64,000 nucleotides of DNA from Elusimicrobiota bacterium (GTDB taxonomy: Bacteria; Elusimicrobiota; Elusimicrobia; UBA1565; UBA9628), in NCBI GenBank assembly GCA_027319565.1, contig DAHVNA010000001.1, positions 114,716 to 178,715 of the forward strand, read 5' to 3'. A program made the translations under genes and the position numbers. The notes below the pieces were generated by a model. That model had not been told where the DNA came from. It worked only from the letters and a program-made list of their open reading frames with translations, and searched no databases. Position 1 is the first letter of the stretch. Every line of letters begins with the position of its first letter. Positions 1 through 16,802 of the stretch are shown here, piece by piece.

Positions 1-1915
1 CAATATAAGGGTTATAGAGGATGTGGGTAAACCCCAGGGCTAATAATTCTTGGCGCAATTGCCGCCAGTCGGCGATGGAGTTGTAATCGAGAACTCCGGG
101 GTTTAAAGGATCGCCCCAGGCGTATTGGGGGTTGAGATAATAGCCCCTGACATCCCGGAAAAGAAAAATTTTAGAATTTAGCGGCAGATGATTGGCGGCT
201 TGACTCATCAAATACCAAGGCCCGAGACTTTTTTCAAGATAATGCCGGGCGGGCGGCTCTAGAGCGGCATCGAGGTTTAAAAAGGCATACATTTCGTTGT
301 TCAAAGACAATTTCTTCAAGGGCCAGAGGCCAATTAAAAGCGCGGAAAATGCCAGGGTTCGCAAGAACGGTTTTTCTCCGAGGAGTTGGGAACTCCAGGC
401 GCCGATTAAAACCGCCAAGATCGCGGCCGCCGGTAAAAAATAGCGCCAGTCCTGGTAGACATAAAACCAAACCGTGTAGAAGAAAAAGATAAAGAGAAGA
501 ATTTTTTTCTCGATCGCTTCGAGAGACGGGCGCCGGATGAGACGAACGGAGAGCAAAATGAAAAAAGGAATCATCATCCACTGCGGCTGGTGGAGAAAGG
601 TCTTGGGTTTTAAAATAAGGACAAAGGGGACGCTTAAATAATGAACGAAGGTTTTGGAGACTCCTTCGGTCACTGACGCAGATAAGCGCTTCCAGGCCGC
701 CATATCCGGGGCGCTGGCATGAAAAAATTGTCCCAAATAGGGCCAGACCGGGTTTCCAGTTTGAATCCAATTTTTTAAATACCAGGGAAATCCCAAAAGA
801 AAGACTCCGCTTCCGTAGAGAAAAATTTCTTTTGCCTTCTCAAGGACGGAATCGGAATTTTGGATTAAAATCAGAGCGCCTAAAGCTGCGATGGCCCATA
901 GCCCGGTAATTTTCGCGCTGGCGGCAAGGCCGCTTAAGAGCCCGCAGAGAAATAAGAGCCGCTTGCGTTCTCGTGAAAGCGGTTCTCGCGATAAGATGAG
1001 AAAAACAAAAACAGCGGCGGCGATGGTTTGGGCGATGTTGAGGTCTGTTTCCGCGTTTCCTATGACCCGTTGAAATAACGGCTGAACCGATAAAAGAGCG
1101 CAAGAAATTTCCGCCGCTCTATTTCCAAAGAAACGCCGGGCAATCAGCCATGCCGCGGCCAAAAGTCCAAGGCCGTTGATAAAATTAACGATGTGGGCGG
1201 CGCGGGCGCCGATGAAGGCCAAGCACAAGAGATAAATCATTTCGGCTCCAAGGGGATAATGGGCATTGGCTGACCATCTTAAGTTGACCAAGGCCTTGTC
1301 ATGGAGAAAAATTTTGGGAAGAGCCAGATGATAAGCCAAGGAGTCCCAATCGGTGTCCGGGGCTGAGCTAGCGATAAAGCCTCGCAAAAGGGCGGCAAAA
1401 ATGGCGGTCCAGCAAAGAATGGATATCCAATCTCTTTTCTCGTGAGAGGAATCTCTAATTTTTTGGACGGCTTTGGCGAAAAAATTTCTTTCTCGCCAGG
1501 CTCCCCAACAGAGAAATGCAAAGAGGCTCAATAATACCGCGCTTGTGTAAAGAGAAAGAAGACCGAGACTGAAGATGAGTAGAGAAATTAATCCCTCCCC
1601 GATAACCAACGATAGAAATAATTTTTCCGGCGTCTCTAAAACTTCTGAAATCTCAAGCGAATCTAGGATGGCGCGGCCTAAAGATAAAAAGCCAAGGGCG
1701 AGGATGAGGGCGAAAACGACGCTAGCGGTAAAATGAAAAAATCCGTTGAGACTCCTGAGAGTTAAAGCGTTCGGATGCGAAAATAAATAGGACAGGCAAT
1801 AGCGGCTTTGAAATAAAACAAAGGCGAGCGCGAGAAAAAAAGATAAAAATAGGTTAATTTTGGCTTGAGAGCTTATCTGAAATTTTTTCGCGCAATTCAA
1901 GGATCGCTCGAACAT
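1..1915 (-). CDS. GT-C fold membrane glycosyltransferase (family 39 / PMT-ArnT-like), partial. The C-terminus runs off the window start. The gene is in the third minus-strand frame and is missing from the supplied ORF track.
   Basis: I translated the minus strand myself. The frame whose codons end at coordinate ≡1 (mod 3) is open from nt 1915 down to nt 1 with no stop. It begins MFERSLNCAKK and contains about 12 predicted TM helices. Motifs include SAPDTDWDSLAYHLALPKIFL, GSGVFLLGFPWYLKNWIQTGNPVWPY and LPLNSKIFLFRDVRGYYLNPQYAWGDPLNPGV, typical of PMT_2/ArnT-like GT-C enzymes. The ORF-track entries 234..770, 840..1103 and 1279..1521 are in other frames. The start overlaps the 3' end of the upstream MltB gene by about 60 nt. 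Confidence 0.6.
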   Translation of the reverse strand, partial: MFERSLNCAKKFQISSQAKINLFLSFFLALAFVLFQSRYCLSYLFSHPNALTLRSLNGFFHFTASVVFALILALGFLSLGRAILDSLEISEVLETPEKLFLSLVIGEGLISLLIFSLGLLSLYTSAVLLSLFAFLCWGAWRERNFFAKAVQKIRDSSHEKRDWISILCWTAIFAALLRGFIASSAPDTDWDSLAYHLALPKIFLHDKALVNLRWSANAHYPLGAEMIYLLCLAFIGARAAHIVNFINGLGLLAAAWLIARRFFGNRAAEISCALLSVQPLFQRVIGNAETDLNIAQTIAAAVFVFLILSREPLSRERKRLLFLCGLLSGLAASAKITGLWAIAALGALILIQNSDSVLEKAKEIFLYGSGVFLLGFPWYLKNWIQTGNPVWPYLGQFFHASAPDMAAWKRLSASVTEGVSKTFVHYLSVPFVLILKPKTFLHQPQWMMIPFFILLSVRLIRRPSLEAIEKKILLFIFFFYTVWFYVYQDWRYFLPAAAILAVLIGAWSSQLLGEKPFLRTLAFSALLIGLWPLKKLSLNNEMYAFLNLDAALEPPARHYLEKSLGPWYLMSQAANHLPLNSKIFLFRDVRGYYLNPQYAWGDPLNPGVLDYNSIADWRQLRQELLALGFTHILYNPYI

Positions 1916-2762
1916 AGTTGTCGGAAGGGTTGTAGGCGTAAATCGAGTTCCAGATCGGAGATCCCGGGCTGGAATCTCCGGCGGCGTATCCGTGGGCTAT
2001 GAGGTAGTGGGCGACGCTGGCTAAAACGTCGGGCCAACTCTTCCAGTTTTTAACTCCGTCCCCATCGAAATCGACGGCATATGTATTGTAGCTGGACGGC
2101 ATGAATTGAAAATATCCGAAAGCTCCGGCGTAGGAACCCTTGATGGATTGAGGACGAATGTTTCCTTTATAACAAAGCTCCATGTAAGCGGCCAGTTCTT
2201 GCCGAGCCCAATCGGATAAGGCCGGGATCTTGGCCGCGATGGTGTAAAGGGCCGATAGGACCGGAATGCTTCCGGTGACATGTCCCCAGCGCGTTTCAAC
2301 CCCGACCAAGCTGACTAAAATAAGAGGATCGACGGGATAATCGTTTTGGATTTGAGACAAAAGTTCCGCATGTTTTTGATAAAAAGCGGCGCCGTAATCG
2401 ATATTGGCCTTGGTCATGAATCTTTTGCGGTATTCTTTATAGGGCATTTTCTCGGCGGGGCGGTGGAATAAGCCGATAATTGCGGGGATGATCTTCGTCT
2501 TTGGATTAAACAAGGCTCTGTGGACAAAGGAGTTGGGGACATTAGAATCGGAGAGACGATGGATGATATCTCGATAAATGGTTTCTTTGCTGAGGGCTTT
2601 TTTACTCTCGGTCAAAGAGGAGCTTTTTTGCCTGAGGAGAATTTGAATCTGATTGATCTGATTGAAAAATGCGGAATCATCCTGCGGGAGTTCTGCCGCT
2701 TGAGAGAGGAGAACATTTCCGAGGACCAATATCAAGGACAGAGATAATTTTTTCCTATTCAT
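1854..2762 (-). CDS. mltB: Membrane-bound lytic murein transglycosylase B (MltB, family 3 LT) with a signal peptide.
   Basis: N-terminal signal peptide MNRKKLSLSLILVLGNVLLSQAAE. MltB hallmark motifs are LVGVETRWG and YAGAFGYFQFMPSSY, plus the EF-hand-like DFDGDG. Confidence 0.8.
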   Translation of the reverse strand: MNRKKLSLSLILVLGNVLLSQAAELPQDDSAFFNQINQIQILLRQKSSSLTESKKALSKETIYRDIIHRLSDSNVPNSFVHRALFNPKTKIIPAIIGLFHRPAEKMPYKEYRKRFMTKANIDYGAAFYQKHAELLSQIQNDYPVDPLILVSLVGVETRWGHVTGSIPVLSALYTIAAKIPALSDWARQELAAYMELCYKGNIRPQSIKGSYAGAFGYFQFMPSSYNTYAVDFDGDGVKNWKSWPDVLASVAHYLIAHGYAAGDSSPGSPIWNSIYAYNPSDNYVRAILELREKISDKLSSQN

Positions 2763-2823
2763 AATTTAAGTTTAGCATAGAAAGTCTTACATAAGACCAT
2801 GATAAATTCCTATCATTAGAAAC

Positions 2824-5064
2824 ATGGCGCGCTCACGGCCTGTCGCGGAAACTTTGCCGGTTGGTCTTTCATGGCTGGATTTCCTTCAGCATTTTTTTCT
2901 GGTCTTAGCCTTTTTTGTCTCTCCGCTGATTTTTTTTACCAATCTTACTCGCAATCCCTATATCACGCAGATTTGCGCCCTCAATATCTCGATTTCCATC
3001 GTTCTCACTCTTTGGATGTTCCAAAATTACGGAGAGTTGCGAAAGATTAAGACGGTTCTTGATTTTCCGCTGCTCTTTTGGACCCTCATTATTTTCATCA
3101 GTTGGGGATACGCTTTTTTTAGGCACGTCAAATTTTACCGGCCCTCCGTTTTCAATGAAGGCCTTAACCATGAAATTTTTTGGGTGATCAACTGCCTGGG
3201 GGCTTTTTTTATCGGGGTTTCTTCGATCCGAAGTCAAGAGGAGGCCGATGAAGATGTCAACATCTGGGCGTGGGCGGGTTTTTGCGTTGTATGGGGGAGT
3301 TTGTGGTTTTTTTTCCCGTTGATGAGGAGTTCCAACTCGCCAGCCACCGACATCGCGGCCTTGGTCTGGAACGGTTACGGGGCTTTTCTCTGGGTGTTGG
3401 GAGTGGGATGTTGCGTTTACTTAAGCTTTAAAAGAAGAGCCATTGATTATCTCCATCTCGCTTTGGCCGCGGGGTTTTTGGCCTCGGCTTACGGCGTTCT
3501 TCAGTATTTTAATTTTGAGTTTATTTGGCCTCACGCGCTCAATCCTTATGGCGGACGCGCGGTTTCAACTTTTGGAAACCCCAACTTCCTTTCTTCCTAC
3601 AATGTCATCTTGCTTCCTTTTTGCGTGGTTTTATGGGCCCGAGCCAAGGGTGGGGCGCGTTATTGGTATGGCATCTGCGCGCTGACGCTTGAAGCCGGGC
3701 TTTTATGCAGCCTGACCCGCTCTTCTTGGCTTGGGGCTTTTGTGGCCGTGTCTTTCTTATTTTTTTCGAAAGGATTTATTCATATGCTCCGGAAAGAAAT
3801 ACGCCTATTTGGGCTTTTTTTTGGAGTGGGTTTTGCCGTTTTTGTCTTATGGCCGCATAGTCTTCTTTCGGCTGGATATCATCCCAGCGTTTTAGGGCGC
3901 TTGGAAGAAGTCGATACCTTGCTTAAGCCCGGACCGGTGAAGCAGGCCTATAGTCCTTGGCATCAAAGAGTGATGATTTGGACTTGCGCCTGGCTGATGG
4001 CCAAAGACAATCCCTTGACCGGGCAAGGTTTTGGGCTTTTTGAGTTGTTCTATCCGTTTTATCAAGGACCGGTTTTGCGGGCTACGCCTTTTTACTGGGA
4101 TTTAAGGACTCATGCCAACAATGCCCACAATGAGGCGCTGGAGGTTTTATCCCAGACAGGGATATTGGGGCTGGGGTTGTTTATTTGGGTCTGGGTGGTT
4201 TTTTTCCGTTTCGCGCGTGATTTTAGCGGTCAAGAAGAAGATTCCCTTAAAAATTTGTGGGTTTCCGCGGGCGCGGCGAGCGTTTTGGGCATGCTGGCTG
4301 ACAATCTCCTCAACGTGTCTCTTCATTTCGCGGTTCCGGCTTTTCTTTTTTGGTGGGTGGTGGGCTCTAGCGTTGGAAATGGGCGCGTTCACTTTTTGAA
4401 GGCGAGGGCGGAAAAAAATAAAAGAAATATTTGGGTTTTTCTCTCTGTTTTAGGCTTATGCGTGTGGATGATCGGGCGCTGGAGCTGCGTTTGGGAAAGA
4501 GAAGTCCATTATTTTTCCGGTTTTAAATTAGCTAGACAGGGAGATATGCCTGGCGCGATTAATCAGCTTGAGATTTCAAAACATTGGGGGCCGCCCGAGG
4601 TTAACGCGATTTACGAATTAGGCAACGCTTACGCGCGTTCCGGGTTTTTTAGAAGAGCTGAAAAAAACTATCAGGCGGCTCTTGATGCCAATGCGGGATA
4701 TGACGAAATTTTCTTTAACAAGGGGGCTATCGAGGCCAATCATCTCAATGACATCCTCGACGCGATTAATAATTTTCGCGTTTCGTGGTGGATTAACCCA
4801 CTTTTGAAAGACGTTTACAATAGCCTAGGCGCGCTTTATTTGCGAGATCCGCTTAAGTATCTCTCGCCGGCCTTGGATCTTCTCTCATATGGCGTCAAGG
4901 TATTCCCCCAAGACTCCGGGTTCTGGAATAATTTAGGCTATCTTCAAACCCTCAATAAAAATTATCCTGAAGCTGTCAGCGATTATCAAAGAGCTCTTCA
5001 GATTAACCCCAATTTGACCGCCGCGCGAAAGAATCTGGAAATTCTAACCCACTTTCGTCCCTAA
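2824..5064 (+). CDS. O-antigen ligase (Wzy_C)-like polytopic membrane protein with C-terminal TPR repeats. This is a candidate PglL/TfpO-type O-oligosaccharyltransferase.
   Basis: At least 10 TM helices. Wzy_C-like core LCSLTRSSWLGAFVAVSFLFF. C-terminal TPR-like units: IYELGNAYARSGFFRRAEKNYQAALDAN and NNLGYLQTLNKNYPEAVSDYQRALQINPN. Confidence 0.65.
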   Translation: MARSRPVAETLPVGLSWLDFLQHFFLVLAFFVSPLIFFTNLTRNPYITQICALNISISIVLTLWMFQNYGELRKIKTVLDFPLLFWTLIIFISWGYAFFRHVKFYRPSVFNEGLNHEIFWVINCLGAFFIGVSSIRSQEEADEDVNIWAWAGFCVVWGSLWFFFPLMRSSNSPATDIAALVWNGYGAFLWVLGVGCCVYLSFKRRAIDYLHLALAAGFLASAYGVLQYFNFEFIWPHALNPYGGRAVSTFGNPNFLSSYNVILLPFCVVLWARAKGGARYWYGICALTLEAGLLCSLTRSSWLGAFVAVSFLFFSKGFIHMLRKEIRLFGLFFGVGFAVFVLWPHSLLSAGYHPSVLGRLEEVDTLLKPGPVKQAYSPWHQRVMIWTCAWLMAKDNPLTGQGFGLFELFYPFYQGPVLRATPFYWDLRTHANNAHNEALEVLSQTGILGLGLFIWVWVVFFRFARDFSGQEEDSLKNLWVSAGAASVLGMLADNLLNVSLHFAVPAFLFWWVVGSSVGNGRVHFLKARAEKNKRNIWVFLSVLGLCVWMIGRWSCVWEREVHYFSGFKLARQGDMPGAINQLEISKHWGPPEVNAIYELGNAYARSGFFRRAEKNYQAALDANAGYDEIFFNKGAIEANHLNDILDAINNFRVSWWINPLLKDVYNSLGALYLRDPLKYLSPALDLLSYGVKVFPQDSGFWNNLGYLQTLNKNYPEAVSDYQRALQINPNLTAARKNLEILTHFRP

Positions 5065-5151
5065 ACTCTGTAATAATTTAGCAAACACTTCGGCGCAATA
5101 ATTATTAGGATAAGCGAAATCTATTTAAGGGAGAAATATCGGTTAAAGCTC

Positions 5152-6978
5152 ATGTTTAGAAGGAGGCAGAAGTTTTTTTGGAGCTTGATTATTGGCTCAC
5201 TTACCGTCGGTGCATGGGGGGGAATTATTGCTGGCCAAGAGCCGCCGCTGAGCCGCGATATGCAACTGGGAATTTTTTATTTCAAGAAGGGGGAGGATTC
5301 CGAGGCGATGGACCGCTTTATTGAAGTCCTTAATGGCGGAAACCCGACCGAGAGAACCCTTGCCAATAAGTATCTTAACCGTATTACTCGGCGCATGTCG
5401 GGGACAGAATCAAATCCACAAAAACCAGCTCAAAAAACGGAAGAGAAAACATCTTCTTCTTCATCCTCGGCTGTTCCCTCAAGCGCCGTAAAACCGGCTC
5501 CAAGTCCTACTCCATCCCAAGCTCAAGCCGCGCCAGCGTCTGTTGCGGCGCCGCATGAAGCGCCTGTAGCGTCCCCTCAAACACAAAAACAAAGCCCTGC
5601 GGTTGCTGTTTCCCCTACGGCTCAAGCCGCGCCACTGAGTCCTAGCGCCATTCAAGAACAAATCAAGGGGAAAATCCAAGCCTTGGCTGATTCCGGATTG
5701 AGGCGCTTGAAGCGCGTTCATCGTGTCGTTATTCTTCGTAAAAAAGATGAACGGCCGTTGGCGATTGCCTTGCCTTCGGATATTCTATTTGAAAAGCAAA
5801 TAGCGTTTAAAAACCGCGCCAATCAAATTATTTCCGATTTAGCCTCGGTCACTTACGGAGAAGGACAAGCGAAAATATTCATTTTCCCCCAAGGAGCCGC
5901 ATTGGGAGATGTGAAGGTCATGGATATGCGTCGGGCAGTGGCTCTCGCCGATTCCTTGGTGTCTCTGGGAATCGCTCCTAGCCGGGTTCAGGCGGAGCTT
6001 CTCACTGGAAGCTCATACCGCATTCCGAGTTCGCTTCTTTCATTTAAAGGGATTATCTTGGTTTTTGATTATCATTCGACTCTTGATCTTAAGGCGCCGC
6101 CGGACGAGTCCGGACCGCCCTTATCGATGGGGCTTTCTAGTCCGCGGTTCAGGGCTGATCAAGGCCAAGGCGTTTTGATCGAGTTCTCCGTTCAAAAACC
6201 GCATTCGGGGGTGAATTTCTGGAGATTTAAGATTTTGGGACCCGAGAACGCCAAAGCGAAGACAATTGAAGAAGTCGTGGGAAGCGGCCCGGTGTTTCAT
6301 CAGGTCTATTGGGACGGCAGGAAAAATTATTCCGGCTTTCATGAACCCTATGGTTTTTATGAGTGCCTTTTAACGGCGAAAGATGGCTCAGGGCGAACTC
6401 GGGCGATTCACCGTTGGGTTGAACTGGCCGGACCCGCTGGGGCGCAACACGCTTCAAGGAAAATTCCCGCGAAGGCATCCAAGGTAGTCAGCGCATCGAA
6501 GCGTTCTCATCTTAAGCCAGCGGGGAAGTCTTTTCACGGCAAAAAAGTTTCATATGTTCAATTGCGCGCGAGCCGCAGAAAGAAAATGAAGCGGAGTCTG
6601 CATGAAAAGAAAATAAAATCCCGAGCGAAAGGGCCTCGGATTGCAAGCGCGATTGTGTTTAAGACCAGTAGTTATCAATTGTCAAAAGCCATGAAAAGCA
6701 ATATCCTGAAACTTGCGCGTGACATGGCTAAAAATAAGAAAGTCCGATATGATATTATCGGTTATGCCAAGCCTGCGGAAAAAAATGCTAAAAACTTATG
6801 TCGGCAGCGGGCGCAGATAGTCGCCGGATTGCTCATCAACAAATATCGGATTAATTTTAAAAGGCTTAAAATCAGCGGGAAAGTGTCAAATTTAAAAGGT
6901 TCTCGTGTGCTGGTTTTAGCGCGAATAGCCGCAAAAAAGAGGAGAATTCAAAAGCGTGGACGAAAAGTTCATCGATGA
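5152..6978 (+). CDS. Envelope protein with an N-terminal TM/signal anchor, a Pro/Ala/Ser-rich linker, two OmpA-like peptidoglycan-binding domains and one FlgD-Ig-like domain.
   Basis: N-terminal TM/signal FFWSLIIGSLTVGAWGGIIAG, then a P/A/S-rich linker. OmpA-like segments: ANQIISDLASVTYGEGQAKIFIFPQGAALGDVKVMDMRRAVALADSLVSLGIAPSRV and NLCRQRAQIVAGLLINKYRINFKRLKISGKV. FlgD-Ig-like segment: GPVFHQVYWDGRKNYSGFHEPYGFYECLLTAKDGSGR. Confidence 0.5.
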   Translation: MFRRRQKFFWSLIIGSLTVGAWGGIIAGQEPPLSRDMQLGIFYFKKGEDSEAMDRFIEVLNGGNPTERTLANKYLNRITRRMSGTESNPQKPAQKTEEKTSSSSSSAVPSSAVKPAPSPTPSQAQAAPASVAAPHEAPVASPQTQKQSPAVAVSPTAQAAPLSPSAIQEQIKGKIQALADSGLRRLKRVHRVVILRKKDERPLAIALPSDILFEKQIAFKNRANQIISDLASVTYGEGQAKIFIFPQGAALGDVKVMDMRRAVALADSLVSLGIAPSRVQAELLTGSSYRIPSSLLSFKGIILVFDYHSTLDLKAPPDESGPPLSMGLSSPRFRADQGQGVLIEFSVQKPHSGVNFWRFKILGPENAKAKTIEEVVGSGPVFHQVYWDGRKNYSGFHEPYGFYECLLTAKDGSGRTRAIHRWVELAGPAGAQHASRKIPAKASKVVSASKRSHLKPAGKSFHGKKVSYVQLRASRRKKMKRSLHEKKIKSRAKGPRIASAIVFKTSSYQLSKAMKSNILKLARDMAKNKKVRYDIIGYAKPAEKNAKNLCRQRAQIVAGLLINKYRINFKRLKISGKVSNLKGSRVLVLARIAAKKRRIQKRGRKVHR

Positions 6979-8581
6979 ATGGGCCTTTGGGATAAAGGCT
7001 CCCAAGGTTTCTCAAAATCTGGGCATTTACCTAAGCCCAAGCGTGGCCTATATTGCCCAATCCCATCTCAACAAAGGCCGTTTGGTTTTAGATCAGCTTT
7101 TTCGCGTGGCCCTTCCTAAACCTAAAGTCGTGGCTCCGCCTAAGGAAGCTTCTCAAATGCCGGGAGTGGAGTTGTGGGGAGATTTTAACGATATTTTGGA
7201 CGTTTTGCGCCCCTCTATAGGCAAACTGGTCAATGCGCCAAAGGAGGTCGTGGTTTCTCTCTCTCCGGAACTCAGTCTCCTTCGTTATTTTCAGATGCCT
7301 CAAATTGAGCAAAGATTTTGGAAAACGGCAATTCCTTTGGAGGCAAAAAAACATATTCCTTTCGCCTTTCAAGGCCTTACCAGCGATTTTCAGGTTTTTC
7401 CTTCTGCGGTTTCAACCCCGGAGGGAAAAACGATGCAGGGGGTCTTGTTCGCCGTCACGTCTAAATCGACCTGGGAAGGCGTTAGAGATTTAATGAAGGG
7501 GTTGAAATTAGAGATGGTGGCCATGGAGACCAGCGTCAACTCTTATTTGAGATTTCTGCTGTCCATGGATAAAGGGATTGCGGATCCTGCTTGCCTTTGG
7601 GTCCATTTTTCCGATGTGAAGGTTCGCATTGTCGGATTTGCAAAAGGAATTCCGCTTTTGTTTAGAGAAGCTGATTGGTATCCCAATGGTGATCTAAGGA
7701 CGCTAGGACTTCCCAGCCTGGTTGATTTTATCAGCCATAAATTAAATTTGGGGTCCGTGCAAAAGTGCTTAGTTAGCGGCGCAGCCAATGAGTCTATCAT
7801 TGCGGGGCTTTCCCAGGAGATAAATCTGAGAGGGGAACCCAAAAACCCTGGACTTCCATTAGGGCTTAAGGGCGGAGATTTTGAGTCTTATGCCGCCATT
7901 GGCGGTTCTTTCCGTTTTACCGCTCCTTCTCCCGCCAATATCGATTTTTCCGCGGCAATGAAGGTGACTGATGGCGAGAGAAAAGCGGCGATGTTTGTTT
8001 TTGGGGCTTCAGTTGTTGTCGCCGTACTTTTTATCGTTTTAGGCTTGTTCTCAGGTGTCCAAGTTTTCATGCAATCACGGGAACTTTCAGGAATTAAAAG
8101 AGACCCGCATGTCGAGGCCCTCTTTCGCGGAAAATCCCAGGGGGATATACAAAAGATGATCTCTAAAATAGAAAAAGAAACGGCTTTTTTAGGCGGCGCC
8201 AGTAATAAAAAAAATGACCCTTCTGTTTTCCTTGAGGATATCGCTGCTTCCATTCCCGAAAACCTTTGGCTGACCGATATAAAACTGGATAATCCCTTAC
8301 CACGGCCAGGGCGCAACATAGGGCAGGGTATGACACTAAAATTATCTGGATATTCCACGGCCGATTCGCGGATGGGGGAAGAAGAAGACGCCAAAAACTT
8401 TAAAGAAGCTCTTGAGGAATTGCCTGATTTTAAAAGATTTTCCGTTCAGATACAATTGCAGAAAGGGCAAAGCCAAAGCATGTTTGGGGGTCTCAATAAA
8501 GACCCGTATGAAGCGGAGCGGCAGCGCGAGAAAAGAACGGGTTTTGATATTACCATTCAGCCGCGATACGATTTAAATTAA
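6956..8581 (+). CDS. pilM: Type IV pilus assembly PilM (actin-like ATPase fold) fused to a PilN-like TM + periplasmic segment.
   Basis: PilM-like N-terminus GIYLSPSVAYIAQ. A single TM at the C-terminal third (MFVFGASVVVAVLFIVLGLFSGVQVF) is followed by a PilN-like periplasmic region (ENLWLTDIKLDN...MTLKLSGYS). Position immediately upstream of the pilO/pilP/pilQ homologues. Confidence 0.6.
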   Translation: MDEKFIDEWAFGIKAPKVSQNLGIYLSPSVAYIAQSHLNKGRLVLDQLFRVALPKPKVVAPPKEASQMPGVELWGDFNDILDVLRPSIGKLVNAPKEVVVSLSPELSLLRYFQMPQIEQRFWKTAIPLEAKKHIPFAFQGLTSDFQVFPSAVSTPEGKTMQGVLFAVTSKSTWEGVRDLMKGLKLEMVAMETSVNSYLRFLLSMDKGIADPACLWVHFSDVKVRIVGFAKGIPLLFREADWYPNGDLRTLGLPSLVDFISHKLNLGSVQKCLVSGAANESIIAGLSQEINLRGEPKNPGLPLGLKGGDFESYAAIGGSFRFTAPSPANIDFSAAMKVTDGERKAAMFVFGASVVVAVLFIVLGLFSGVQVFMQSRELSGIKRDPHVEALFRGKSQGDIQKMISKIEKETAFLGGASNKKNDPSVFLEDIAASIPENLWLTDIKLDNPLPRPGRNIGQGMTLKLSGYSTADSRMGEEEDAKNFKEALEELPDFKRFSVQIQLQKGQSQSMFGGLNKDPYEAERQREKRTGFDITIQPRYDLN

Positions 8582-8585
8582 TTTT

Positions 8586-9175
8586 ATGGCTATGGATATT
8601 AAGGATATCAATAGAAAAATTCGCCATTTGCAGCGAGATTTTGGCGATACTATTTTTGTTCTCCAAAATAAGGGACTTAAGTATTTCCAACGCGTTTGGT
8701 TGGCGGCGCTTCTCATTTGTTTGTACCCTATAAATTCTTTTATCAATCGATGGATAGTAGAATTTCGTCATTAGAGATGAGAATTAAGACAGCCCGGGCC
8801 ACTAATAAATATGCCAAGACCTATAACGATGCCATGGAAAATCTTCTCGTCGTTGAGCGCCGCCTTCCTCCGGCAAGCAAGGGGACCGGGTGGTTAAGCG
8901 ATATTTCTATTTCTTCTCTCAAAGACGAAAACATTACTCCTGATTCAGTCTCTTCCGTCCATCAAGTTCAAAGCGGAAAACTTATTAAGGAAAGCATCTC
9001 GGTCGATTTTCAAGCGAAATTCCCTGAAATTTTTTCGTGGCTTTATAAGATTGAACACGATCATTATCTGATTCATGTTGACTCTCTGCAGATAAAAAAG
9101 AAAGGGCTCGATGAAAACAAAGTTCATTGCACTCTTTCTACTTTGATTCAGGCTGGATCCGGAGGTAATTCCTAA
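8586..9175 (+). CDS. PilO-like inner-membrane pilus assembly protein, apparently split by a frameshift. A TM-bearing ORF (8586..8774) is followed by a coiled-coil periplasmic ORF (8696..9175).
   Basis: ORF 8586..8774 encodes a short cytoplasmic segment plus a TM (RVWLAALLICLYPINSFI). The overlapping +2 frame continues from about 8750 with MDSRISSLEMRIKTARATNKYAKTYNDAMENLL... for roughly 140 aa. Position between pilMN and pilP. The frames switch near the homopolymeric tcttttatcaatcg around 8738-8752. Confidence 0.35.
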
Positions 9176-9904: not shown

Positions 9905-11893
9905 ATGAAGATTAATGGGTGGGGTTTTAAAGGTCTTGCGTGGGGAAAAAGTTTGTGGCGCGCTCTTTGCCTTTTATCAGCCTTGGAATTGGCCCTTTTG
10001 CCTGGGTTGACGGCCCTAGCCCAATCCGACAGCTCAACTCCCGAGGCCAATCCGCAGTTCCAAAATTCCGTGCAAAGTCCTAAAAGCGATTCCGGCTCTC
10101 CAGTGGGAAGCGTTTCCGCCGTTAAAGCCCATGCCGCGTCGGCTTCTAAAGCCCTCGAGCAGGCAAGTTCCCCTTCTCAAGCGGGCGCGTCTCCGTCAGG
10201 AATTCAAATCGGCGCTTCCAGTTCTCCAACGCCCCCGCGTAAGAAAAGAGCCCCATCCCCTTTGGACACACGCGTTTCGATTCGAGTCAAGGGCGCGCCA
10301 TTGGCGACTTTTTTAGATGCCATTTCCGCTCAGGCCAGGATTAATTTCTTAATCACCGAGGGCCTTGAGTCAGTTAAAATGACCGCCTTTTTGCAAAAGG
10401 TGACGGTTCGAGAAGCCTTGCAGATCCTTCTTGAAATTAAAGGCTTAACCTATCGGCAGATTGGCAAAAGTAATACCTATGTCATTAAAAAACGTTCCAA
10501 AAATGCTCCCAACTTTATCACGCGGATTTATTCTCTTTCCTACATACCCTTGGTCAATATCTCTCAACAAGGAACCCAAGGTCAACAAGGAGGAGCGGCA
10601 GGCGGCGCGGCGGGCGGCATGGCGGCAATGCTCGGCGGAATGGGGGGGCCGTCTGCGGGAGGAAGTTCTGGCGGCGGCGCGCCGGGAGGAGCTGGCGGTT
10701 CTGGCGGAGGGTTGGCGCCAGGTCAGGGTGGGCAGGCTTTAGGAATGGGATCCATGATGGGAGGCGCTGGCGTGGGTGGACAGCAAGGCGGCATGCCGGG
10801 AGCGGGAACCGGGGGCGTGAGCTCTATTGTGACCGTGGTCCAATCGGTTTTAACCAAGGCCGGCCGAGTGGCTGTGGATCCTCGAACCAACTCTTTAATC
10901 GTAACCGATGTGCCGGAGGTCTTTCCCCAGGTGGATCAACTGATTGCCGAACTTGACAAAAAAGTTCCCCAGATCATGATTGAGGCCCAGATTGTGGAAA
11001 TTGATTCCAATCGCGCCAATGATCTCGGTTTTGAGTGGGGCGGGCCAAACGGCGAAATGGGGACTTTTACCGGTGGCCAGCGCGATACGTCTTTTCCAAT
11101 GGTTTTGACCGGAGCCAGCGGCCAGCCGCGCTTTTTTGATCCGGTTCAAAACGTCATGAGCACCTTGGCCCTTGAAGGCGGCGGCATGATGGGGGGCAGT
11201 AGCGGCGGCATGGGCGGCGGCATGGGCACGACCTTGGGCGGAATTGGATCCACTGGCGGAACCTTGGCTATTCCCACGACACAGCCGGGAATCAATCCTC
11301 TGACCGGGCTTCCTATGCTGGGGTCTAGCGTCATGACCAGCGTCTTGAACTTAAGCCAGCTGACGATTACCTTACGCATGCTGGTCTCTCGCTCGGAAGC
11401 GCGCTATTTGGGAAAGCCCAAAATCTTAACCGTCAATAATACTCCGGCGACGATTTCTATCACTGGAAACACCGCAATTTACATGTCGCAGCAGACCACC
11501 GGCGGGACCATGGGAATTACCCAGGCGACCTATTCTCCTGTGACTGCAAATACTGGCCTTACTTTGACCGTGACTCCTCAAGTCAACGGCGATGGATATA
11601 TTACGATGGCGGTCAATCCTCAGTTTACCGATGTGCAACCAGCGGTCATTTCAAGCGCGGCCAATCCTGTTTATGACACTCTGGTTCGACGTGCGCAAAC
11701 CCTAGTGCGCGTCAAAAATGGAGAGACCTTGGTTCTTGGAGGGCTTTTGCATTCAACCGAACAGAAAACCGTGCGCAAGGTTCCGTTTTTGGGATATATT
11801 CCCGTCATCGGATGGCTTTTTACCAGCGTCCAAGCCCAGCGCAAGAACACGGATCTGGTCATCTTTATAACGCCGACCATCATTAACGATTGA
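9905..11893 (+). CDS. pilQ: Secretin (PilQ/GspD family) with long Gly-rich low-complexity inserts.
   Basis: Signal peptide. N0-like ITEGLESVKMTAFLQKVTVREALQILLEIKGLTYRQIG. Secretin_N: RVAVDPRTNSLIVTDVPEVFPQVDQLIAELDKKVPQIMIEAQIVEI. Secretin C domain: LVRVKNGETLVLGGLLHSTEQKTVRKVPFLGYIPVIGWLF...DLVIFITPTII. Gly-rich inserts at about aa 218-300 and 420-455. Confidence 0.85.
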   Translation: MKINGWGFKGLAWGKSLWRALCLLSALELALLPGLTALAQSDSSTPEANPQFQNSVQSPKSDSGSPVGSVSAVKAHAASASKALEQASSPSQAGASPSGIQIGASSSPTPPRKKRAPSPLDTRVSIRVKGAPLATFLDAISAQARINFLITEGLESVKMTAFLQKVTVREALQILLEIKGLTYRQIGKSNTYVIKKRSKNAPNFITRIYSLSYIPLVNISQQGTQGQQGGAAGGAAGGMAAMLGGMGGPSAGGSSGGGAPGGAGGSGGGLAPGQGGQALGMGSMMGGAGVGGQQGGMPGAGTGGVSSIVTVVQSVLTKAGRVAVDPRTNSLIVTDVPEVFPQVDQLIAELDKKVPQIMIEAQIVEIDSNRANDLGFEWGGPNGEMGTFTGGQRDTSFPMVLTGASGQPRFFDPVQNVMSTLALEGGGMMGGSSGGMGGGMGTTLGGIGSTGGTLAIPTTQPGINPLTGLPMLGSSVMTSVLNLSQLTITLRMLVSRSEARYLGKPKILTVNNTPATISITGNTAIYMSQQTTGGTMGITQATYSPVTANTGLTLTVTPQVNGDGYITMAVNPQFTDVQPAVISSAANPVYDTLVRRAQTLVRVKNGETLVLGGLLHSTEQKTVRKVPFLGYIPVIGWLFTSVQAQRKNTDLVIFITPTIIND

Positions 11894-11948: not shown

Positions 11949-13703
11949 ATGCCTGACAAAGCCTTCTTGGCGGATATGATGGTTTCTTCCGGTTCGCTGA
12001 CGGCGGAACAAAAAGAGAAAGCTCTCAAGGCTTCTCAAGAAGCTAGGTGCAGCTTTGAAGAGGCGGTCATTAAACTTGGTTTCGCTTCCGAAAGCGTGGT
12101 CACTGCGGCTTTGTCAAGGCAATTAGGCATTCCCCTCGCTTCGCGGGAAAATAAGATTTTAATCCCGGAAAAAGGCCAGGGGCTTGAGAAATTGATTCCT
12201 GAAAATTTCGCTCGAGATCATCTGGTCGTTCCCCTATTTCTTGAAGATGGCACCCTGGGCGTTGCGATGGCAGATCCTACCAATGTGATGCTTCAAGATA
12301 ATATTCGGGTCTTGAGTTCCAAAACCATTCATCCCTTTGTGGCGGCAAAAACTCAAATTTTAAAGTCCATTGACGAGCTTTATGGCGGAAATCTTGGAGG
12401 CAGTCTCGTTGATCGTACGCTGGAAGAGGGTAAAAAAAGCGGCGGGGTTAGCGCTGAAGAATCCGACTCTGCGGATGTGCGCGTGGATCTCGACAAGGCT
12501 ATTTCTGGTTCAAAAGACGCCCAGATTATTTCTCTTATCAACGCCATTTTAAAACAGGCCGTCAATGAGAGATGTTCCGATATTCATTTGGAAAGTTTTG
12601 ACAACCGCGCGAGTTTGCGCTTCCGCATCGACGGGATTTTGTATGAGAGAAGCTCTCCTCCCAAAGCGATATTCGCGTCCTTGGTTTCGAGGATCAAAAT
12701 TCTCTCGAAACTTGATATCGCGGAGCGCCGTCTGCCTCAAGATGGAACCTTTTCAATTAAACTTCAAAACCGCAATATCGATCTGCGGGTTTCCATTTGC
12801 CCGACGGTTTACGGAGAAAAGGTCGTCATGCGTATTTTAGATAAGGGCGCGGTTAATCTTGACGTAGATAAAATCGGCTTTGAGCCAAAACAGAAAGCGG
12901 ATTTTTTGGATGCGGCCAAACAGCCCCATGGCCTGATATTTCTCACCGGTCCCACGGGGTCCGGAAAAACCACCACCCTTTATTCCGTCTTAAATACCAT
13001 TAAAACGCCGGAGCTTAATTTTATGACTATTGAGGATCCGGTTGAAATTAAGCTCGACGGTCTCAATCAAGTTCAGGTTCGCTCCGATATCGGGCTTACT
13101 TTTGCCGCGGCCTTGCGTTCTTTTTTACGCCAAGATCCGGATGTGATTTTAGTCGGAGAGGTTCGAGATCAGGAAACCGCCCAGACCTGCTTAAGGGCGG
13201 CCTTAACCGGACACCTGGTTCTTTCGACTCTTCACACTAACGACGCGATGTCAACAGTCGTGCGTTTAATTGATCTGGGAATCGAGCCGTTTTTGCTTTC
13301 CGGAAGTCTTCTTTTGGCGGCGGCTCAGCGCTTGGTTCGCATTCTTTGTCCCCATTGCAAAAAGCCTTATAAACCGGACCCCGCTCAATTGGAGGCTTGC
13401 ATCAAGGAATCCATGTTGCCGCAGGCTCAAATTCCGAATCCGGCCAATATCGTTTTTTACAGAGAGCATGGCTGCGATAAATGTTCTCAAACCGGTTATA
13501 TGGGCCGACGGGCGATCTATGAAATTTACCGTATTATTCCGGAGATGAGAGAAATTATCTACAAATACGGCGGCGATTTGGCCCGGCTTCGAGAGGTGGC
13601 GGTCAAAAGCGGCATGTGGGATTTAAGGGCGAGCGGTTGGAGAAAGGTTTTGTCCGGGTTGACGACTTCTGAAGAGGTGCTCTCGGTGACGATGAAGGAA
13701 TAG
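11949..13703 (+). CDS. pilB: Type IV pilus / T2SS assembly ATPase (PilB/GspE family).
   Basis: T2SSE_N domain (LADMMVSSGSLTAEQKEKALKASQEARCSFEEAVIKLGFASESVV). Walker A GPTGSGKTTT. Asp box LVGEVRD. His box. Tetracysteine CPHCK...CDKC. Confidence 0.85.
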   Translation: MPDKAFLADMMVSSGSLTAEQKEKALKASQEARCSFEEAVIKLGFASESVVTAALSRQLGIPLASRENKILIPEKGQGLEKLIPENFARDHLVVPLFLEDGTLGVAMADPTNVMLQDNIRVLSSKTIHPFVAAKTQILKSIDELYGGNLGGSLVDRTLEEGKKSGGVSAEESDSADVRVDLDKAISGSKDAQIISLINAILKQAVNERCSDIHLESFDNRASLRFRIDGILYERSSPPKAIFASLVSRIKILSKLDIAERRLPQDGTFSIKLQNRNIDLRVSICPTVYGEKVVMRILDKGAVNLDVDKIGFEPKQKADFLDAAKQPHGLIFLTGPTGSGKTTTLYSVLNTIKTPELNFMTIEDPVEIKLDGLNQVQVRSDIGLTFAAALRSFLRQDPDVILVGEVRDQETAQTCLRAALTGHLVLSTLHTNDAMSTVVRLIDLGIEPFLLSGSLLLAAAQRLVRILCPHCKKPYKPDPAQLEACIKESMLPQAQIPNPANIVFYREHGCDKCSQTGYMGRRAIYEIYRIIPEMREIIYKYGGDLARLREVAVKSGMWDLRASGWRKVLSGLTTSEEVLSVTMKE

Positions 13704-13711: not shown

Positions 13712-14935
13712 ATGTCTCAATTTTCATATGTCGTTCAAGACGCTAGGGGCGAGGCCATTTCTGGGACCCTTGAAGCGGGAGATGAAAACGAAGCGGTGGC
13801 GGCCCTTCAATCAAAGGGCTATTTTATTTTGTCATTGTCTTCTAAAGACACAAAGACGACCAGCCGACAAGGCGCATCTTCCAAATCGCCCAAGGTCGCC
13901 CAGCAGGATCTTATTTTCTTTTCTGAACAATTGTCGACGCTTTTAACCGGTGGCGTTCCTTTAGTTCGAGCTTTGTCCTTGCTTGGAGAACATACCAACT
14001 CCCCGGGGCTTCACGCGGTGGTGGGAGCGGTGACCCAAGACGTGTCCCGCGGAACGGCGCTTTATAAGGCTCTGGCGAAACATCCCGCCATTTTCGATAC
14101 CTTGTGGGTTTCCCTGGTTCAAGCGGGAGAAATGGGAGGACAACTCCCCAAGGTTTTGCGGCAAATCGCCAATTATTTGACGGCTCAAGCGGAATTAAGA
14201 GGAAAAATCATCACGGCTTTGGCTTATCCCGCGGTTCTGGCTTGTATGTCGGGAGGGGTTCTCGCTTTTTTCGTCATCCATATCGTCCCGGTTTTTGCCG
14301 ATATTTTTAAGCAATTTCACATTAAACTCCCGATGCTCACCCAAATGGTTGTTTCCACTTCGGAACTCATCGTTCATCACTTAGGCCTGATTATTTTTGT
14401 CGTGGTGGGGGGATACATGGCGTGGAAATCGTATACTTCCACCGATGCCGGCAAAATTGCCAAATGGAATCTGATATTTGGAATTCCTTTTTTTGGCGAC
14501 TTCATCAAACACATTATGGTCGAAAGACTCTTGACTACTCTTTCGACTTTAATTGAAAGCGGCGTCAGTATTCTTAATGCGATTGCGGTTTTAGAAGGCG
14601 TTTTTTCATCCAATATTATTTTCCAGACGGCTCTGAGCGCGATTAAGGTGGACGTGGCGGCGGGAAAATCAATATCGGCGGCCTTTAGAAAATCGGGGGT
14701 TTTGCCTTCCTTGGTAACCGAGATGATGTTCATGGGGGAAGAATCGGGCAAGTTGCCGGATATGCTTCAGACCATGTCCGGGTTTTACAGGCTTCAAATT
14801 GATCAGTTTACTCGCAGATTCACCGCCATTATAGACCCGATACTGGTGGTCGGAATCGGCGGACTTGTCGGCGTTATTGTTTTAGCGGTCTTTATGCCAA
14901 TCTTTAAAATGTCGACGATGGGAGGAGGACATTGA
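13712..14935 (+). CDS. pilC: Type IV pilus / T2SS inner-membrane platform protein (PilC/GspF family).
   Basis: Two T2SSF repeats (FSEQLSTLLTGGVPLVRALSLL and LTTLSTLIESGVSILNAIAVL). Three TM segments. Directly follows the ATPase gene. Confidence 0.85.
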   Translation: MSQFSYVVQDARGEAISGTLEAGDENEAVAALQSKGYFILSLSSKDTKTTSRQGASSKSPKVAQQDLIFFSEQLSTLLTGGVPLVRALSLLGEHTNSPGLHAVVGAVTQDVSRGTALYKALAKHPAIFDTLWVSLVQAGEMGGQLPKVLRQIANYLTAQAELRGKIITALAYPAVLACMSGGVLAFFVIHIVPVFADIFKQFHIKLPMLTQMVVSTSELIVHHLGLIIFVVVGGYMAWKSYTSTDAGKIAKWNLIFGIPFFGDFIKHIMVERLLTTLSTLIESGVSILNAIAVLEGVFSSNIIFQTALSAIKVDVAAGKSISAAFRKSGVLPSLVTEMMFMGEESGKLPDMLQTMSGFYRLQIDQFTRRFTAIIDPILVVGIGGLVGVIVLAVFMPIFKMSTMGGGH

Positions 14936-15546
14936 TGAACGGAGAGGAGAAGAAAGTAAAAGAGAGTAACGGAGAGTCACGGAAAGTAGAAGAAAGTTAC
15001 GGAAAGCGACAGAAGCAACGGAAACAGCCTTTTTCCGTTTCTTTCCGTTTCTTTCCGTTTCTTTCCGTTCCGTTTGGTTTTACGCTCATAGAGCTTTTAG
15101 TGGTGATTTTGATTGTCGGAATATTGGCGGCTATTGGATATCCTTCCTACATCCGTTCGATGGAAACCAGCAAGGCCAACGACGCCGTGGGGTATTTGAC
15201 CATGGCTGGGAACGCCGATCGGATGTACGCCGTGGATCATAATGGGATATATGTTGCAGCGGGACAAATTACTGATTCCTGTGATAATGGGGCTACTTGT
15301 CCTCAGAACAATGCCTGCGACTTGGTCTATTGCGGCTATATGCCGGCGGACAATTACAGTGAAAAGCCCTACAGTATTACCATTAATGCTTACGCTCCGC
15401 CTCCATCAGCGCTGGTGACGGTTCAGCGTTGTACAGGTTCTTCTCCTTGTACAAATTCTTCTCCTTACACCGGTTGGGGATATAATATTGATGCCAATGG
15501 AAATGTCACGCCATTTGGTAATCAGACGCCGCCGCCGCCACAATAA
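14935..15546 (+). CDS. Type IV pilin/pseudopilin (probable major subunit) with an exceptionally long charged leader of about 48 aa before the prepilin cleavage site.
   Basis: The ATG overlaps the pilC stop (ttgATGA). Class III signal ...SVPFG|FTLIELLVVILIVGILAAIGYPSY, with Gly at -1 and Glu at +5. The C-terminal domain is Cys-rich with a Ser/Thr/Pro-rich tail (GSSPCTNSSPYTGWGY...TPPPPQ). The leader is encoded by inverted and tandem repeat DNA. Confidence 0.75.
   Translation: MNGEEKKVKESNGESRKVEESYGKRQKQRKQPFSVSFRFFPFLSVPFGFTLIELLVVILIVGILAAIGYPSYIRSMETSKANDAVGYLTMAGNADRMYAVDHNGIYVAAGQITDSCDNGATCPQNNACDLVYCGYMPADNYSEKPYSITINAYAPPPSALVTVQRCTGSSPCTNSSPYTGWGYNIDANGNVTPFGNQTPPPPQ
14966..15075 (+). 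repeat. Inverted repeat with a tandem arm inside the pilin leader-coding region. ACGGAAAG-type units at 14966-15028 face (CTTTCCGTTT)x4 at 15031-15070.
   Basis: Direct reading: gtaacggagag / tcacggaaag / ttacggaaag / caacggaaacag, then cc, then ttttccgttt ctttccgttt ctttccgttt ctttccgttc cgttt. The two arms are reverse complements, so the segment can fold as a long RNA/DNA hairpin. Confidence 0.7.
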
Positions 15547-15561: not shown

Positions 15562-16131
15562 ATGAAAGAAACGGGCGCGACGCTTATTGAGGTTTTAGCC
15601 TCCGTTCTCATAGCGGCGGTGATGACTTCCGCTGTTTTCAGCGTGACCTTGGGGGCCAAGGTACAATCAAAAATTACGGAAGAACACAATGCGGCGTCTG
15701 AGTGCGTGACCCAGCTGACCAATGAACTTCACTCTTTCGTCACCGGTTATTGGGATTACAATACGAATACTTTCAATTCCAATATGACGGAAATCTGCGG
15801 CCCCGCTGATTCGTCTTGTTACCCGGGAACAAGTGGGGGGAATTCCTCTCAATGGACTTGGGCAGATCTGGGAGTAACGGATAACTGCGGGAGCGGCTGT
15901 TACGTTTTAGCTACCGGAACTCACGTCCTTTCAGTTGGGCCCAATGGCTTGACGGCTTTGGGCCAACCCTTTTGTCTTCCTCCCTGGATGTGGCAGCCGC
16001 CTTATAATCCTAGTGGAAATCAGCTCTTGTCCTATACCGTTTCGGCTCCACCGATCGTCTCCGGTCAACAAGTGGGAGGGCCAGGGGTTCAAGTGACGGT
16101 GAATTGGTATAACATCAATGGGTCCCAATGA
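15562..16131 (+). CDS. Minor pilin/pseudopilin (prepilin-type N-terminus).
   Basis: MKETG|ATLIEVLASVLIAAVMTSAVF has the class III signal with Glu at +5. Size and position match the minor-pilin block. Confidence 0.7.
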   Translation: MKETGATLIEVLASVLIAAVMTSAVFSVTLGAKVQSKITEEHNAASECVTQLTNELHSFVTGYWDYNTNTFNSNMTEICGPADSSCYPGTSGGNSSQWTWADLGVTDNCGSGCYVLATGTHVLSVGPNGLTALGQPFCLPPWMWQPPYNPSGNQLLSYTVSAPPIVSGQQVGGPGVQVTVNWYNINGSQ

Positions 16132-16802
16132 ATAAAAATTTTATCGGAGTTTCGATGAGAAATGGCGGATTTACCTTGGTCGAAATGATTGTCGCTCTTC
16201 TTTTAAGCTCTCTTGTCATGGTGGGCTTGATTGATATTACCGCTAGCATCATCGCCCAGCATTTTGAGGGAATTCGTAGAGGAAGAGTAGACAGTGAGAC
16301 CCTTTATTCTCTCGATCAGATGAGGCTGGAGCTTGAAGCCGCGACCTATTACTCTTATCCCAATACGTCAAGCCCGGCTACCATGTCCATTCAGGGCTGC
16401 GGAAATTATTTTTCAGCGACAAGCCCTGGTACGCAAATTTACACGGGGCCCGGCGCAACAATAAGTTCTTTTGCCTATTGCCTTGAGAACAAGTGTACAG
16501 GGAGTAATTCCAATTTGTGCGATCCATCGGGTTATACGGGGCCCTATGATTTAATTCGCTATTATAATCCCAATGGTTGTCCTATTTCGTGCGGAGGAGG
16601 GACGCCTCAGACCTTGGTTTATCAGAATGTCTATTTAGAACCAATATCATTAAATCCTTCGGGCCAGCCTTTTGTCTTGAACCGGCCGCTCGGCGGGGTC
16701 GATGTGCATATGATTATAGGCTATCCTGTTTTGGCGGGAGAAACCCCCACCTATTATCAAATTGATACAACCTATATTCCGGATACGGGGCGCATGCAGT
16801 GA
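16128..16802 (+). CDS. Minor pilin/pseudopilin (PilW/GspJ-like).
   Basis: MRNGG|FTLVEMIVALLLSSLVMVGL prepilin motif. Start overlaps the upstream stop (ATGA). Confidence 0.7.
   Translation: MNKNFIGVSMRNGGFTLVEMIVALLLSSLVMVGLIDITASIIAQHFEGIRRGRVDSETLYSLDQMRLELEAATYYSYPNTSSPATMSIQGCGNYFSATSPGTQIYTGPGATISSFAYCLENKCTGSNSNLCDPSGYTGPYDLIRYYNPNGCPISCGGGTPQTLVYQNVYLEPISLNPSGQPFVLNRPLGGVDVHMIIGYPVLAGETPTYYQIDTTYIPDTGRMQ

Follow-up and report, generated by a model that had tools for sequence, protein, structure and literature searches.

A TPR-bearing Wzy_C protein as candidate O-oligosaccharyltransferase at the head of a conserved type IV filament operon in Elusimicrobia

All four known families of O-oligosaccharyltransferases (O-OTases) carry a Wzy_C domain, and their genes are usually found near pilin genes (PMC3643930, PMC9829042). 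In one survey, 21 of 31 PglL homologues adjoined pilin genes (PMC3643930). TfpO and TfpM glycosylate a Ser or Thr at the pilin C terminus (PMC9829042). The S-layer O-OTase WsfB and PglL feature a C-terminal tetratricopeptide repeat (TPR) motif; WsaB has none, and a TPR protein is encoded next door (PMC2943079). The pilin glycosyltransferase TfpW, a polytopic membrane protein, extends a large TPR domain into the periplasm (bioRxiv 10.1101/2020.04.19.049825). Here we analyze a 64,000-nucleotide stretch of DNA from an Elusimicrobiota bacterium (the window; assembly GCA_027319565.1, contig DAHVNA010000001.1, positions 114,716 to 178,715), in which a Wzy_C protein with C-terminal TPR repeats, hereafter Wzy_C-TPR, is encoded ahead of a type IV filament operon. 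A preliminary description of the window had grouped this gene with two neighbors, for a GT-C glycosyltransferase and an MltB lytic transglycosylase, into one envelope-glycan module heading a pilus locus. In contrast, we read the locus as two unrelated, back-to-back transcription units, with Wzy_C-TPR as a protein O-OTase dedicated to the type IV filament machine. We infer acceptor, donor and activity, and give this reading a probability of roughly 0.55.

For a census of such loci, four aligned PilM/N proteins served as anchor to scan one genome per GTDB species. This yielded 46 loci, which were scored with the window’s proteins and 39 of which had enough upstream sequence for the Wzy_C-TPR question; every locus carrying a taxon name was from Elusimicrobia. 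In 38 of the 39 informative loci, Wzy_C-TPR lay directly upstream of the gene for an OmpA-like protein, beyond which the gene order was kept through the minor pilins. Co-occurrence with the pilus cluster, a test that had been suggested beforehand, was thus positive, and the type IV filament operon of Elusimicrobia has Wzy_C-TPR as its conserved first gene. Searching with the protein yielded 644 homologues, most of them 45–52% identical and about 850 residues long, and all organism-named matches again were Elusimicrobia. Sequence identity among the linked proteins is low (45–52% for Wzy_C-TPR, 30–35% for PilM/N), from which it follows that the linkage between Wzy_C-TPR and the operon outlasted deep divergence. 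Three distant homologues on long contigs were first in the same co-directional operon, with wholly different upstream genes in each case, and the most frequent upstream neighbor family, a Liv-type ABC transporter, occurred in only 11 of 29 loci. Linkage in 38 of 39 loci despite these changing upstream neighbors points to selection for co-expression.

The identity of the protein as a Wzy_C enzyme with TPR repeats, as proposed in the preliminary description, was confirmed by profile and fold. It matched Pfam Wzy_C with 58 bits (cut-off 31.7) together with several TPR models, and all 28 family members tested matched Wzy_C as well. An AlphaFold2 model calculated on 50 homologues (pLDDT 87, pTM 0.89) showed a polytopic fold of the WaaL type, and in a Foldseek search with this model WaaL was the sole membrane protein among the 50 matches listed. 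WaaL is represented by the Cupriavidus metallidurans structures 7TPG/7TPJ and by E. coli WaaL. Sequence-profile searches of the PDB returned TPR proteins only when run with the whole family, and no WaaL when run with the membrane domain alone. The WaaL assignment therefore relies on the fold comparison. The window protein has 746 residues and is thus about 100 residues, or roughly three C-terminal TPR repeats, shorter than most homologues; a few others are likewise short, for example P0107 with 760 residues.

Alignment with hhalign to WaaL of E. coli K-12 paired AHNEALE with LHNEIIE and hence placed His435 on His338, at a probability of 11.7% that is low because the template was a single sequence. 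Local motifs also correspond around two arginines, with TQTRATLL and GARLAMY of WaaL facing SLTRSSWL and HQRVMIW of Wzy_C-TPR (R215/R299 and R288/R382, respectively). R215, R288 and H338 are reported to be important for WaaL function and conserved in PglL (PMC3643930), and TfpM likewise depends on its conserved His (PMC9829042). In Wzy_C-TPR, R299, R382 and H435 were invariant in alignments of 50 and of 28 sequences, as were more than 100 other residues of the membrane domain. Conservation at this level argues for an active enzyme of the WaaL/PglL superfamily and not for a membrane anchor, as far as can be judged from sequence.

Two other functions were weighed. Wzy_C-TPR might be a structural assembly factor, its TPR domain working like the pilotins PilF, PilW and Tgl or providing another kind of scaffold, either for the alignment complex or for the secretin, with the Wzy_C part as a mere membrane anchor. 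Weak NCBIfam TPR matches to PilW and Tgl would fit, as would the JGI names “PilF” or “TadD” on some homologues; moreover, we saw no pilotin gene as such among those of the operon. Given the invariance of R299, R382 and H435, we nevertheless consider this very unlikely. The Wzy_C family also includes polymerases, and the enzyme could polymerize a polysaccharide or pass one to the filament machine for export, in analogy to the cyanobacterial hormogonium polysaccharide (Hps) system, with whose pseudopilin HpsC one minor pilin of the window has a match. However, this match is weak (E 0.0013), genes for glycosyltransferases, a flippase or Wzz are not in the operon, and the best structural match of Wzy_C-TPR is a ligase and not a polymerase. 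An export role of this kind hence is hardly probable.

Three helices separate the catalytic loop (residues 345–437) from a loop at residues 514–537 that contains six Lys and Arg residues. The next hydrophobic helix spans residues 538–556 and falls into a model helix of residues 533–571. The charged loop, the extra helix and the three-helix spacing together predict a TPR domain that lies in the periplasm, next to the active site.

The filament machine belongs to the class of type IV pili and type II secretion systems (T2SS). Model scores were 594 bits for PilB and 557 for GspE, 216 for PilQ and 200 for GspD, and 326 for GspF and 286 for PilC, all below the cut-offs. PilM and PilN are fused, as in GspL, and no PilT-family match was seen among the window open reading frames (ORFs) scanned. 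Since the family models are split between type IVa pilus and T2SS, we use the term type IV filament machine; it could equally be T2SS-like rather than a pilus.

By analogy with TfpO and TfpM, the leading candidate acceptor is the C-terminal Pro/Ala/Ser/Thr tail of the major pilin. We compared 24 pilin sequences, that is, the window pilin and 23 homologues from 22 related loci. A short tail of this composition was present in all 24, which end in a G-x-P-(A/P)-(P/S)-(S/T)-(Q/Y)-like motif after a conserved SPY..WGY..D.NG core; by reading, the penultimate residue was Ser or Thr in about half of them. The preliminary description had noted a Ser/Thr/Pro-rich tail, of which the short tail itself held up, whereas the enrichment is weak, with 37% Ser, Thr and Pro in the last 30 residues versus 24% in the whole mature pilin. 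As second candidate acceptor we consider the OmpA-like protein encoded next to Wzy_C-TPR, in whose Ser/Ala/Pro-rich linker Ser, Ala, Pro and Thr make up 73% over 60 residues. Low-complexity Ser/Ala/Pro-rich linkers are the kind of region that PglL-type enzymes modify. High-GC relatives have similar linkers that are richer in Ala and Pro. Two further features of the pilins were seen. If the major prepilin is read from the ATG at 14935, its Lys/Glu-rich leader comprises about 48 residues up to the G/FTLIELL cleavage motif, which is unusually long. In one related locus (L037:17888-19029), the major-pilin gene is present as a tandem pair, and each copy encodes the conserved C-terminal tail.

Wzy_C-TPR might thus function as follows. 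The enzyme would take a glycan pre-assembled on undecaprenyl pyrophosphate, while its TPR domain, which the extra transmembrane helix would put into the periplasm beside the catalytic loop, would dock a protein of the filament machine. The putative catalytic set Arg299/Arg382/His435, presumably exposed on a periplasmic loop of the WaaL-fold domain, would then transfer the glycan en bloc to Ser or Thr. We also considered the stronger idea that the O-OTase is an integral, co-evolving subunit of the filament machine. With its periplasmic TPR domain docked on the OmpA-like protein or on the alignment complex, it would glycosylate (pseudo)pilins on their way into assembly, which would make glycosylation an obligatory part of filament biogenesis throughout these Elusimicrobia lineages. 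We regard this scenario as distinctly unlikely.

Several points weigh against a dedicated protein O-OTase. Fold and catalytic residues cannot separate such an enzyme from a lipopolysaccharide (LPS) ligase, and the family lacks the PglL_A motif (Pfam PF15864), by which PglL is told apart from WaaL (none at E ≤ 0.01 in the window protein, none at E ≤ 1 in 28 family members). Unlike tfpO, tfpM and pglS, the Wzy_C-TPR gene does not adjoin the pilin gene but precedes it by eight genes and about 10 kb. The tail of the window pilin, ...NVTPFGNQTPPPPQ, contains only one Thr, at six residues from the end, and high GC content may be part of the reason for the Ala/Pro-rich linkers of the OmpA-like proteins. 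The machine could also be a T2SS, for which pseudopilin glycosylation is not known to have been reported. The topology of the TPR domain relies on hydropathy, the positive-inside rule and the topology of WaaL. Finally, L048, the sole exception among the 39 loci, has the operon without a Wzy_C-TPR gene: its OmpA-like gene is not preceded by one, and no long plus-strand ORF was found in the 8 kb upstream (L048:1-10000).

The first of these points leads to the question whether Wzy_C-TPR is WaaL itself, a ligase for LPS O-antigen or another glycolipid, with its position in the operon being mere conserved synteny. A GT9 heptosyltransferase gene in the window (34070-35122, plus strand) shows that an LPS inner core can be built. 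However, this gene, the nearest of its kind, is about 29 kb away from Wzy_C-TPR, and the gene setting is not that of WaaL, as neither wzx/wzz nor core genes are adjacent. Flanking O-antigen (wzx/wzz) genes had been named beforehand as the observation that would speak against a link with the pilus; LPS or O-antigen genes flanked Wzy_C-TPR in none of the loci whose gene content was read, and the whole 64-kb window contains no wzx, wzz or initiating-transferase gene. The linkage to the filament genes, in contrast, is kept in 38 of 39 loci while the upstream genes change. Characterized WaaL enzymes are not known to have a TPR domain. TPR motifs were reported for the protein O-OTases WsfB and PglL (PMC2943079) and for TfpW (bioRxiv 10.1101/2020.04.19.049825). 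Taken together, operon linkage through deep divergence, the lack of adjacent LPS genes and the TPR architecture lead us to favor a protein acceptor, and we regard a WaaL function as unlikely.

The genes on the other side of Wzy_C-TPR turned out to be a different matter. For the GT-C gene, the preliminary description had reported an uninterrupted 638-codon ORF on the minus strand, from nucleotide 1915 down to 1, that was missing from the supplied ORF track. Translation bears this out, and the omission is explained by the frame running past the window end. With a stop frequency of 3/64, the chance of such an open frame is about (61/64)^638, or roughly 5e-14. By exact-sequence look-up of the MltB-like protein, the same locus was recovered on nine public contigs, with six places shown. 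In one of them, L001 (the 119-kb contig DAHZHS010000003.1 of the Elusimicrobia metagenome-assembled genome GCA_027406935.1), and in five other assemblies the gene could be extended to its complete length of 677 residues, and none of the six assemblies has an in-frame stop, the finding that had been named beforehand as speaking against the gene.

Also the assignment as a PMT/ArnT-like enzyme was upheld. The frame matched Pfam PMT_2 with 37.5 bits (cut-off 26.1); NCBIfam gave no match. As the full-length sequence extends beyond the window, a 91%-identical orthologue was modeled with AlphaFold2 (pLDDT 93.5). The best Foldseek match of this model in the PDB was ArnT (5f15, E 1.7e-7, TM 0.56), followed by AglB, ALG12, AftA and Pmt4; the C-terminal domain is alpha/beta and not TPR. 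Residues D191, H196, K335 and R491 were invariant among 40 homologues. D191 lies in the motif APDTDWDSLAYH and is a candidate for the conserved acidic residue that GT-C enzymes have in an early extracytoplasmic loop. This motif (residues 186–196) is preceded by about five predicted helices, which suggests an N-terminal membrane extension (residues ~1–185) relative to ArnT-type enzymes. The family is small, with about 100 homologues, many of which carry Pfam DUF8201. Its presumed reaction is the transfer of a sugar from a polyprenyl-phosphate donor to an acceptor in the periplasm.

An MltB gene is present as described, with 202 bits for Pfam SLT_2 at 1854..2762. With NCBIfam TIGR02282 (MltB) the protein scored 179.6 bits, below the equivalog cut-off of 281.4 bits, and matched profile positions 24–201 of 290; it is MltB-like, not an equivalog. 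The strand switch, however, had been misplaced: the MltB-like gene is on the minus strand like GT-C, transcriptionally upstream of it and with annotated frames overlapping by 62 nt, and the switch is the 61-nt gap before Wzy_C-TPR. From there on, all operon genes 3′ of Wzy_C-TPR are on the plus strand with short gaps. A consensus scan of positions 1–7200 gave only a nominal excess of promoter-like sites (11 versus a shuffled expectation of 6.7 ± 2.3) and terminator-like sites at chance level, and was uninformative for the gap at 2763–2823.

Past the window edge, the order in L001 is GT-C, a gene for a secreted protein of 729 residues and then electron-transfer flavoprotein genes. The 729-residue protein (L001:12914-15103) has a Gln/Ser/Pro-rich N-terminal region and no Pfam match. 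In L013, its gene follows MltB directly with no GT-C in between; hence the pair conserved in this clade is MltB and the 729-residue protein. In the census, MltB was found in four and GT-C in three of the 46 loci, all of them nearest relatives with PilM/N 75–90% identical; in the more distant loci, neither gene occurred within 5 kb upstream of Wzy_C-TPR. The MltB-like, GT-C and 729-residue protein genes thus form a lineage-specific minus-strand unit outside the filament operon. The GT-C/MltB part is a recent neighbor that abuts the operon only in one genus-level clade. GT-C homologues of 44% and 39% identity occur in housekeeping surroundings, adjoining a MiaB-like radical SAM gene, with neither pilus nor MltB genes near them.

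For a joint module of GT-C, MltB and Wzy_C-TPR serving the pilus, for example with GT-C acting like TfpW, one may cite that the genes are adjacent in the window and in three to four close relatives, and that TfpW demonstrates the ability of a GT-C enzyme to glycosylate pilins (bioRxiv 10.1101/2020.04.19.049825). We find such a module scarcely credible, given that GT-C and MltB form a unit of their own on the other strand and are missing near the operon in distant loci, that L013 does without GT-C, that GT-C homologues at 39–44% identity sit among housekeeping genes and that the C-terminal domain of GT-C is alpha/beta with no TPR. Of the module placed at the head of the pilus locus, only the Wzy_C-TPR part stands after the 46-locus census, and GT-C and MltB drop out. 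The identity of GT-C is sound, and nothing in our data connects it with the filament. The annotation of the locus should therefore be corrected so that neither GT-C nor the MltB-like gene is labeled as pilus-associated. The features of both units are compiled in Table 1.

Table 1. Coordinates of the minus-strand unit and of the type IV filament operon in the window
Feature	Position	Strand	Basis or remark
GT-C glycosyltransferase gene	1..1915	-	638 of 677 codons inside the window; outside pilus operon
MltB-like (family 3, SLT_2) lytic transglycosylase with signal peptide	1854..2762	-	Pfam SLT_2
AT-rich divergent intergenic gap, 61 nt, between MltB unit and pilus-type operon	2763..2823		Read directly
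Wzy_C-TPR gene, 746 aa, WaaL-fold membrane enzyme (putative) with C-terminal TPR	2824..5064	+	First operon gene
WaaL-fold polytopic membrane domain, ~aa 1-520	2824..4383	+	
Arg299 codon, motif TRSSW	3718..3720	+	Counterpart of E. coli WaaL R215, PglL R224
Arg382 codon, motif QRVMIW	3967..3969	+	Counterpart of E. coli WaaL R288, PglL R298
Invariant motif R428-T-H-A-N-N-x-H435-N-E...G446..G449	4105..4170	+	His435 counterpart of E. coli WaaL H338, PglL H349
Extra transmembrane helix (predicted), aa 538-556, after Lys/Arg-rich loop	4435..4491	+	Hydropathy, charge, AlphaFold2
C-terminal TPR domain, aa 557-746, predicted periplasmic	4492..5061	+	
OmpA-like peptidoglycan-binding protein, long Ser/Ala/Pro-rich linker	5152..6978	+	Pfam OmpA, synteny
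PilM-PilN fusion (GspL-like) assembly protein	6956..8581	+	Weak Pfam PilM_2 and PilN matches
PilO/GspM-like gene, frameshifted in the window	8586..9175	+	Weak T2SSM_b match
PilP/GspC-position protein, 238 aa	9178..9894	+	Weak T2SSB match, conserved position
Secretin	9905..11893	+	Pfam Secretin, 144 bits
Assembly ATPase with MshEN N-terminal domain	11949..13703	+	Pfam T2SSE, 446 bits, and MshEN
Platform protein (PilC/GspF)	13712..14935	+	Pfam T2SSF
Major (pseudo)pilin, mature part from 15079 (FTLIELL...), tail ...NVTPFGNQTPPPPQ	14935..15546	+	N_methyl motif, weak GspG/PilA matches
Three minor pilin genes (15562-16131, 16128-16802, 16799-17233)	15562..17233	+	N_methyl motif or hydrophobic N-terminus; order conserved

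Within the operon, alignment with DAHZHS010000003.1 showed that the window is one base short near 8717, which splits the PilO/GspM-like gene: L001 encodes an intact protein of 196 residues, as opposed to a 159-residue ORF (8696-9175) in the window. The rest of the 12.7-kb overlap is identical, and the 1-nt deletion may stem from faulty assembly or be a true frameshift. At the operon’s far end, the gene for an HpnK-like deacetylase of the YdjC family (17224-18201, plus strand) overlaps with the third minor pilin gene at its 3′ end and looks translationally coupled to the pilin genes. Of 20 related loci, 19 have an HpnK-like gene after the pilins. Next to it are the convergent hpnL-like, hpnI (GT21) and hpnJ (B12 radical SAM) genes (18083-21720, minus strand). 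From its position and the hpn genes that follow, we conclude that a hopanoid-modification cluster is syntenic with the filament operon across Elusimicrobia. The deacetylase was also considered as a member of a pilin-glycan pathway and rejected as main reading, as it is followed by convergent hpnL-like and hpnI genes in the loci with enough sequence and hence fits the hopanoid cluster.

The remaining genes of the window are housekeeping, two-component, hopanoid, ABC-transporter and TonB/ExbB genes and the one GT9 heptosyltransferase. Directly 3′ of a two-component signaling block, 31909-33975 (plus strand) encodes a 688-residue protein with ankyrin repeats and a caspase (Peptidase_C14) domain. 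A large envelope-spanning gene cluster is located at 39521-48587 (plus strand), where genes for a 1068-residue TPR/YfiO-like protein and a 1099-residue Ig-like/FlgD_ig/CHU_C/OmpA protein are followed by ExbB and TonB_C genes.

For this phylum, which is still largely uncultivated, our analysis predicts that surface filaments, or a protein that anchors them, are O-glycosylated by an enzyme from the machine’s own operon. If this is true, Wzy_C-TPR would represent a fifth, and TPR-bearing, lineage of pilin-linked O-OTases. It could then also help to explain how protein acceptors are chosen, which is relevant for the engineering of glycoconjugate vaccines.

Among described systems, the GT-C enzyme of the window is closest to ArnT (GT83) and PMT (GT39), with which it shares a PMT_2 match above cut-off, ArnT as best PDB match and the invariant Asp in APDTDWDSLAYH. 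It is, however, only 12–14% identical to the solved enzymes, has a distinct alpha/beta C-terminal domain and, unlike ArnT, no arn operon nearby. Compared with WaaL, Wzy_C-TPR has about 120 extra membrane residues, one added C-terminal transmembrane helix and a TPR domain of about 190 residues. Identity between the two is only 16%, the family profile does not reach WaaL in the PDB, and the gene is part of a type IV filament operon rather than an LPS locus. WsfB of Paenibacillus alvei, compared by description only, likewise combines Wzy_C with C-terminal TPR, an architecture tied to protein acceptors (PMC2943079), in a Gram-positive S-layer locus instead of a diderm filament operon. TfpW, the pilin D-arabinofuranosyltransferase of Pseudomonas aeruginosa group IV, resembles both proteins of the window, Wzy_C-TPR in being polytopic, with a large periplasmic C-terminal TPR domain and a place among pilus genes, and GT-C in a catalytic domain modeled on ArnT. 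In contrast, its catalytic domain is GT-C and not of the WaaL fold found in Wzy_C-TPR, and the window GT-C lacks both a TPR domain and a conserved place beside pilus genes.

With the pilin-linked enzymes TfpO/PilO, TfpM, PglS and PglL, Wzy_C-TPR shares the Wzy_C domain with its essential His and a genetic association with type IV pilin genes. The site used by TfpO and TfpM is a C-terminal Ser or Thr, and all pilins compared here have a Pro/Ala/Ser/Thr tail at this end; PglL is moreover reported to have a C-terminal TPR motif (PMC2943079). Wzy_C-TPR differs from all of these in the missing PglL_A motif, its position about 10 kb upstream of the pilin, a much larger TPR domain and its Elusimicrobia host. 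In the literature on O-antigen ligases of Elusimicrobia, or on TPR-bearing ones in type IV pili operons, we did not find this arrangement described. Pilin-linked Wzy_C enzymes are well known and TPR-bearing O-OTases are known as well; what is new here is the Elusimicrobia lineage, the first place in the assembly operon instead of one beside the pilin, and the breadth over which this position is conserved.

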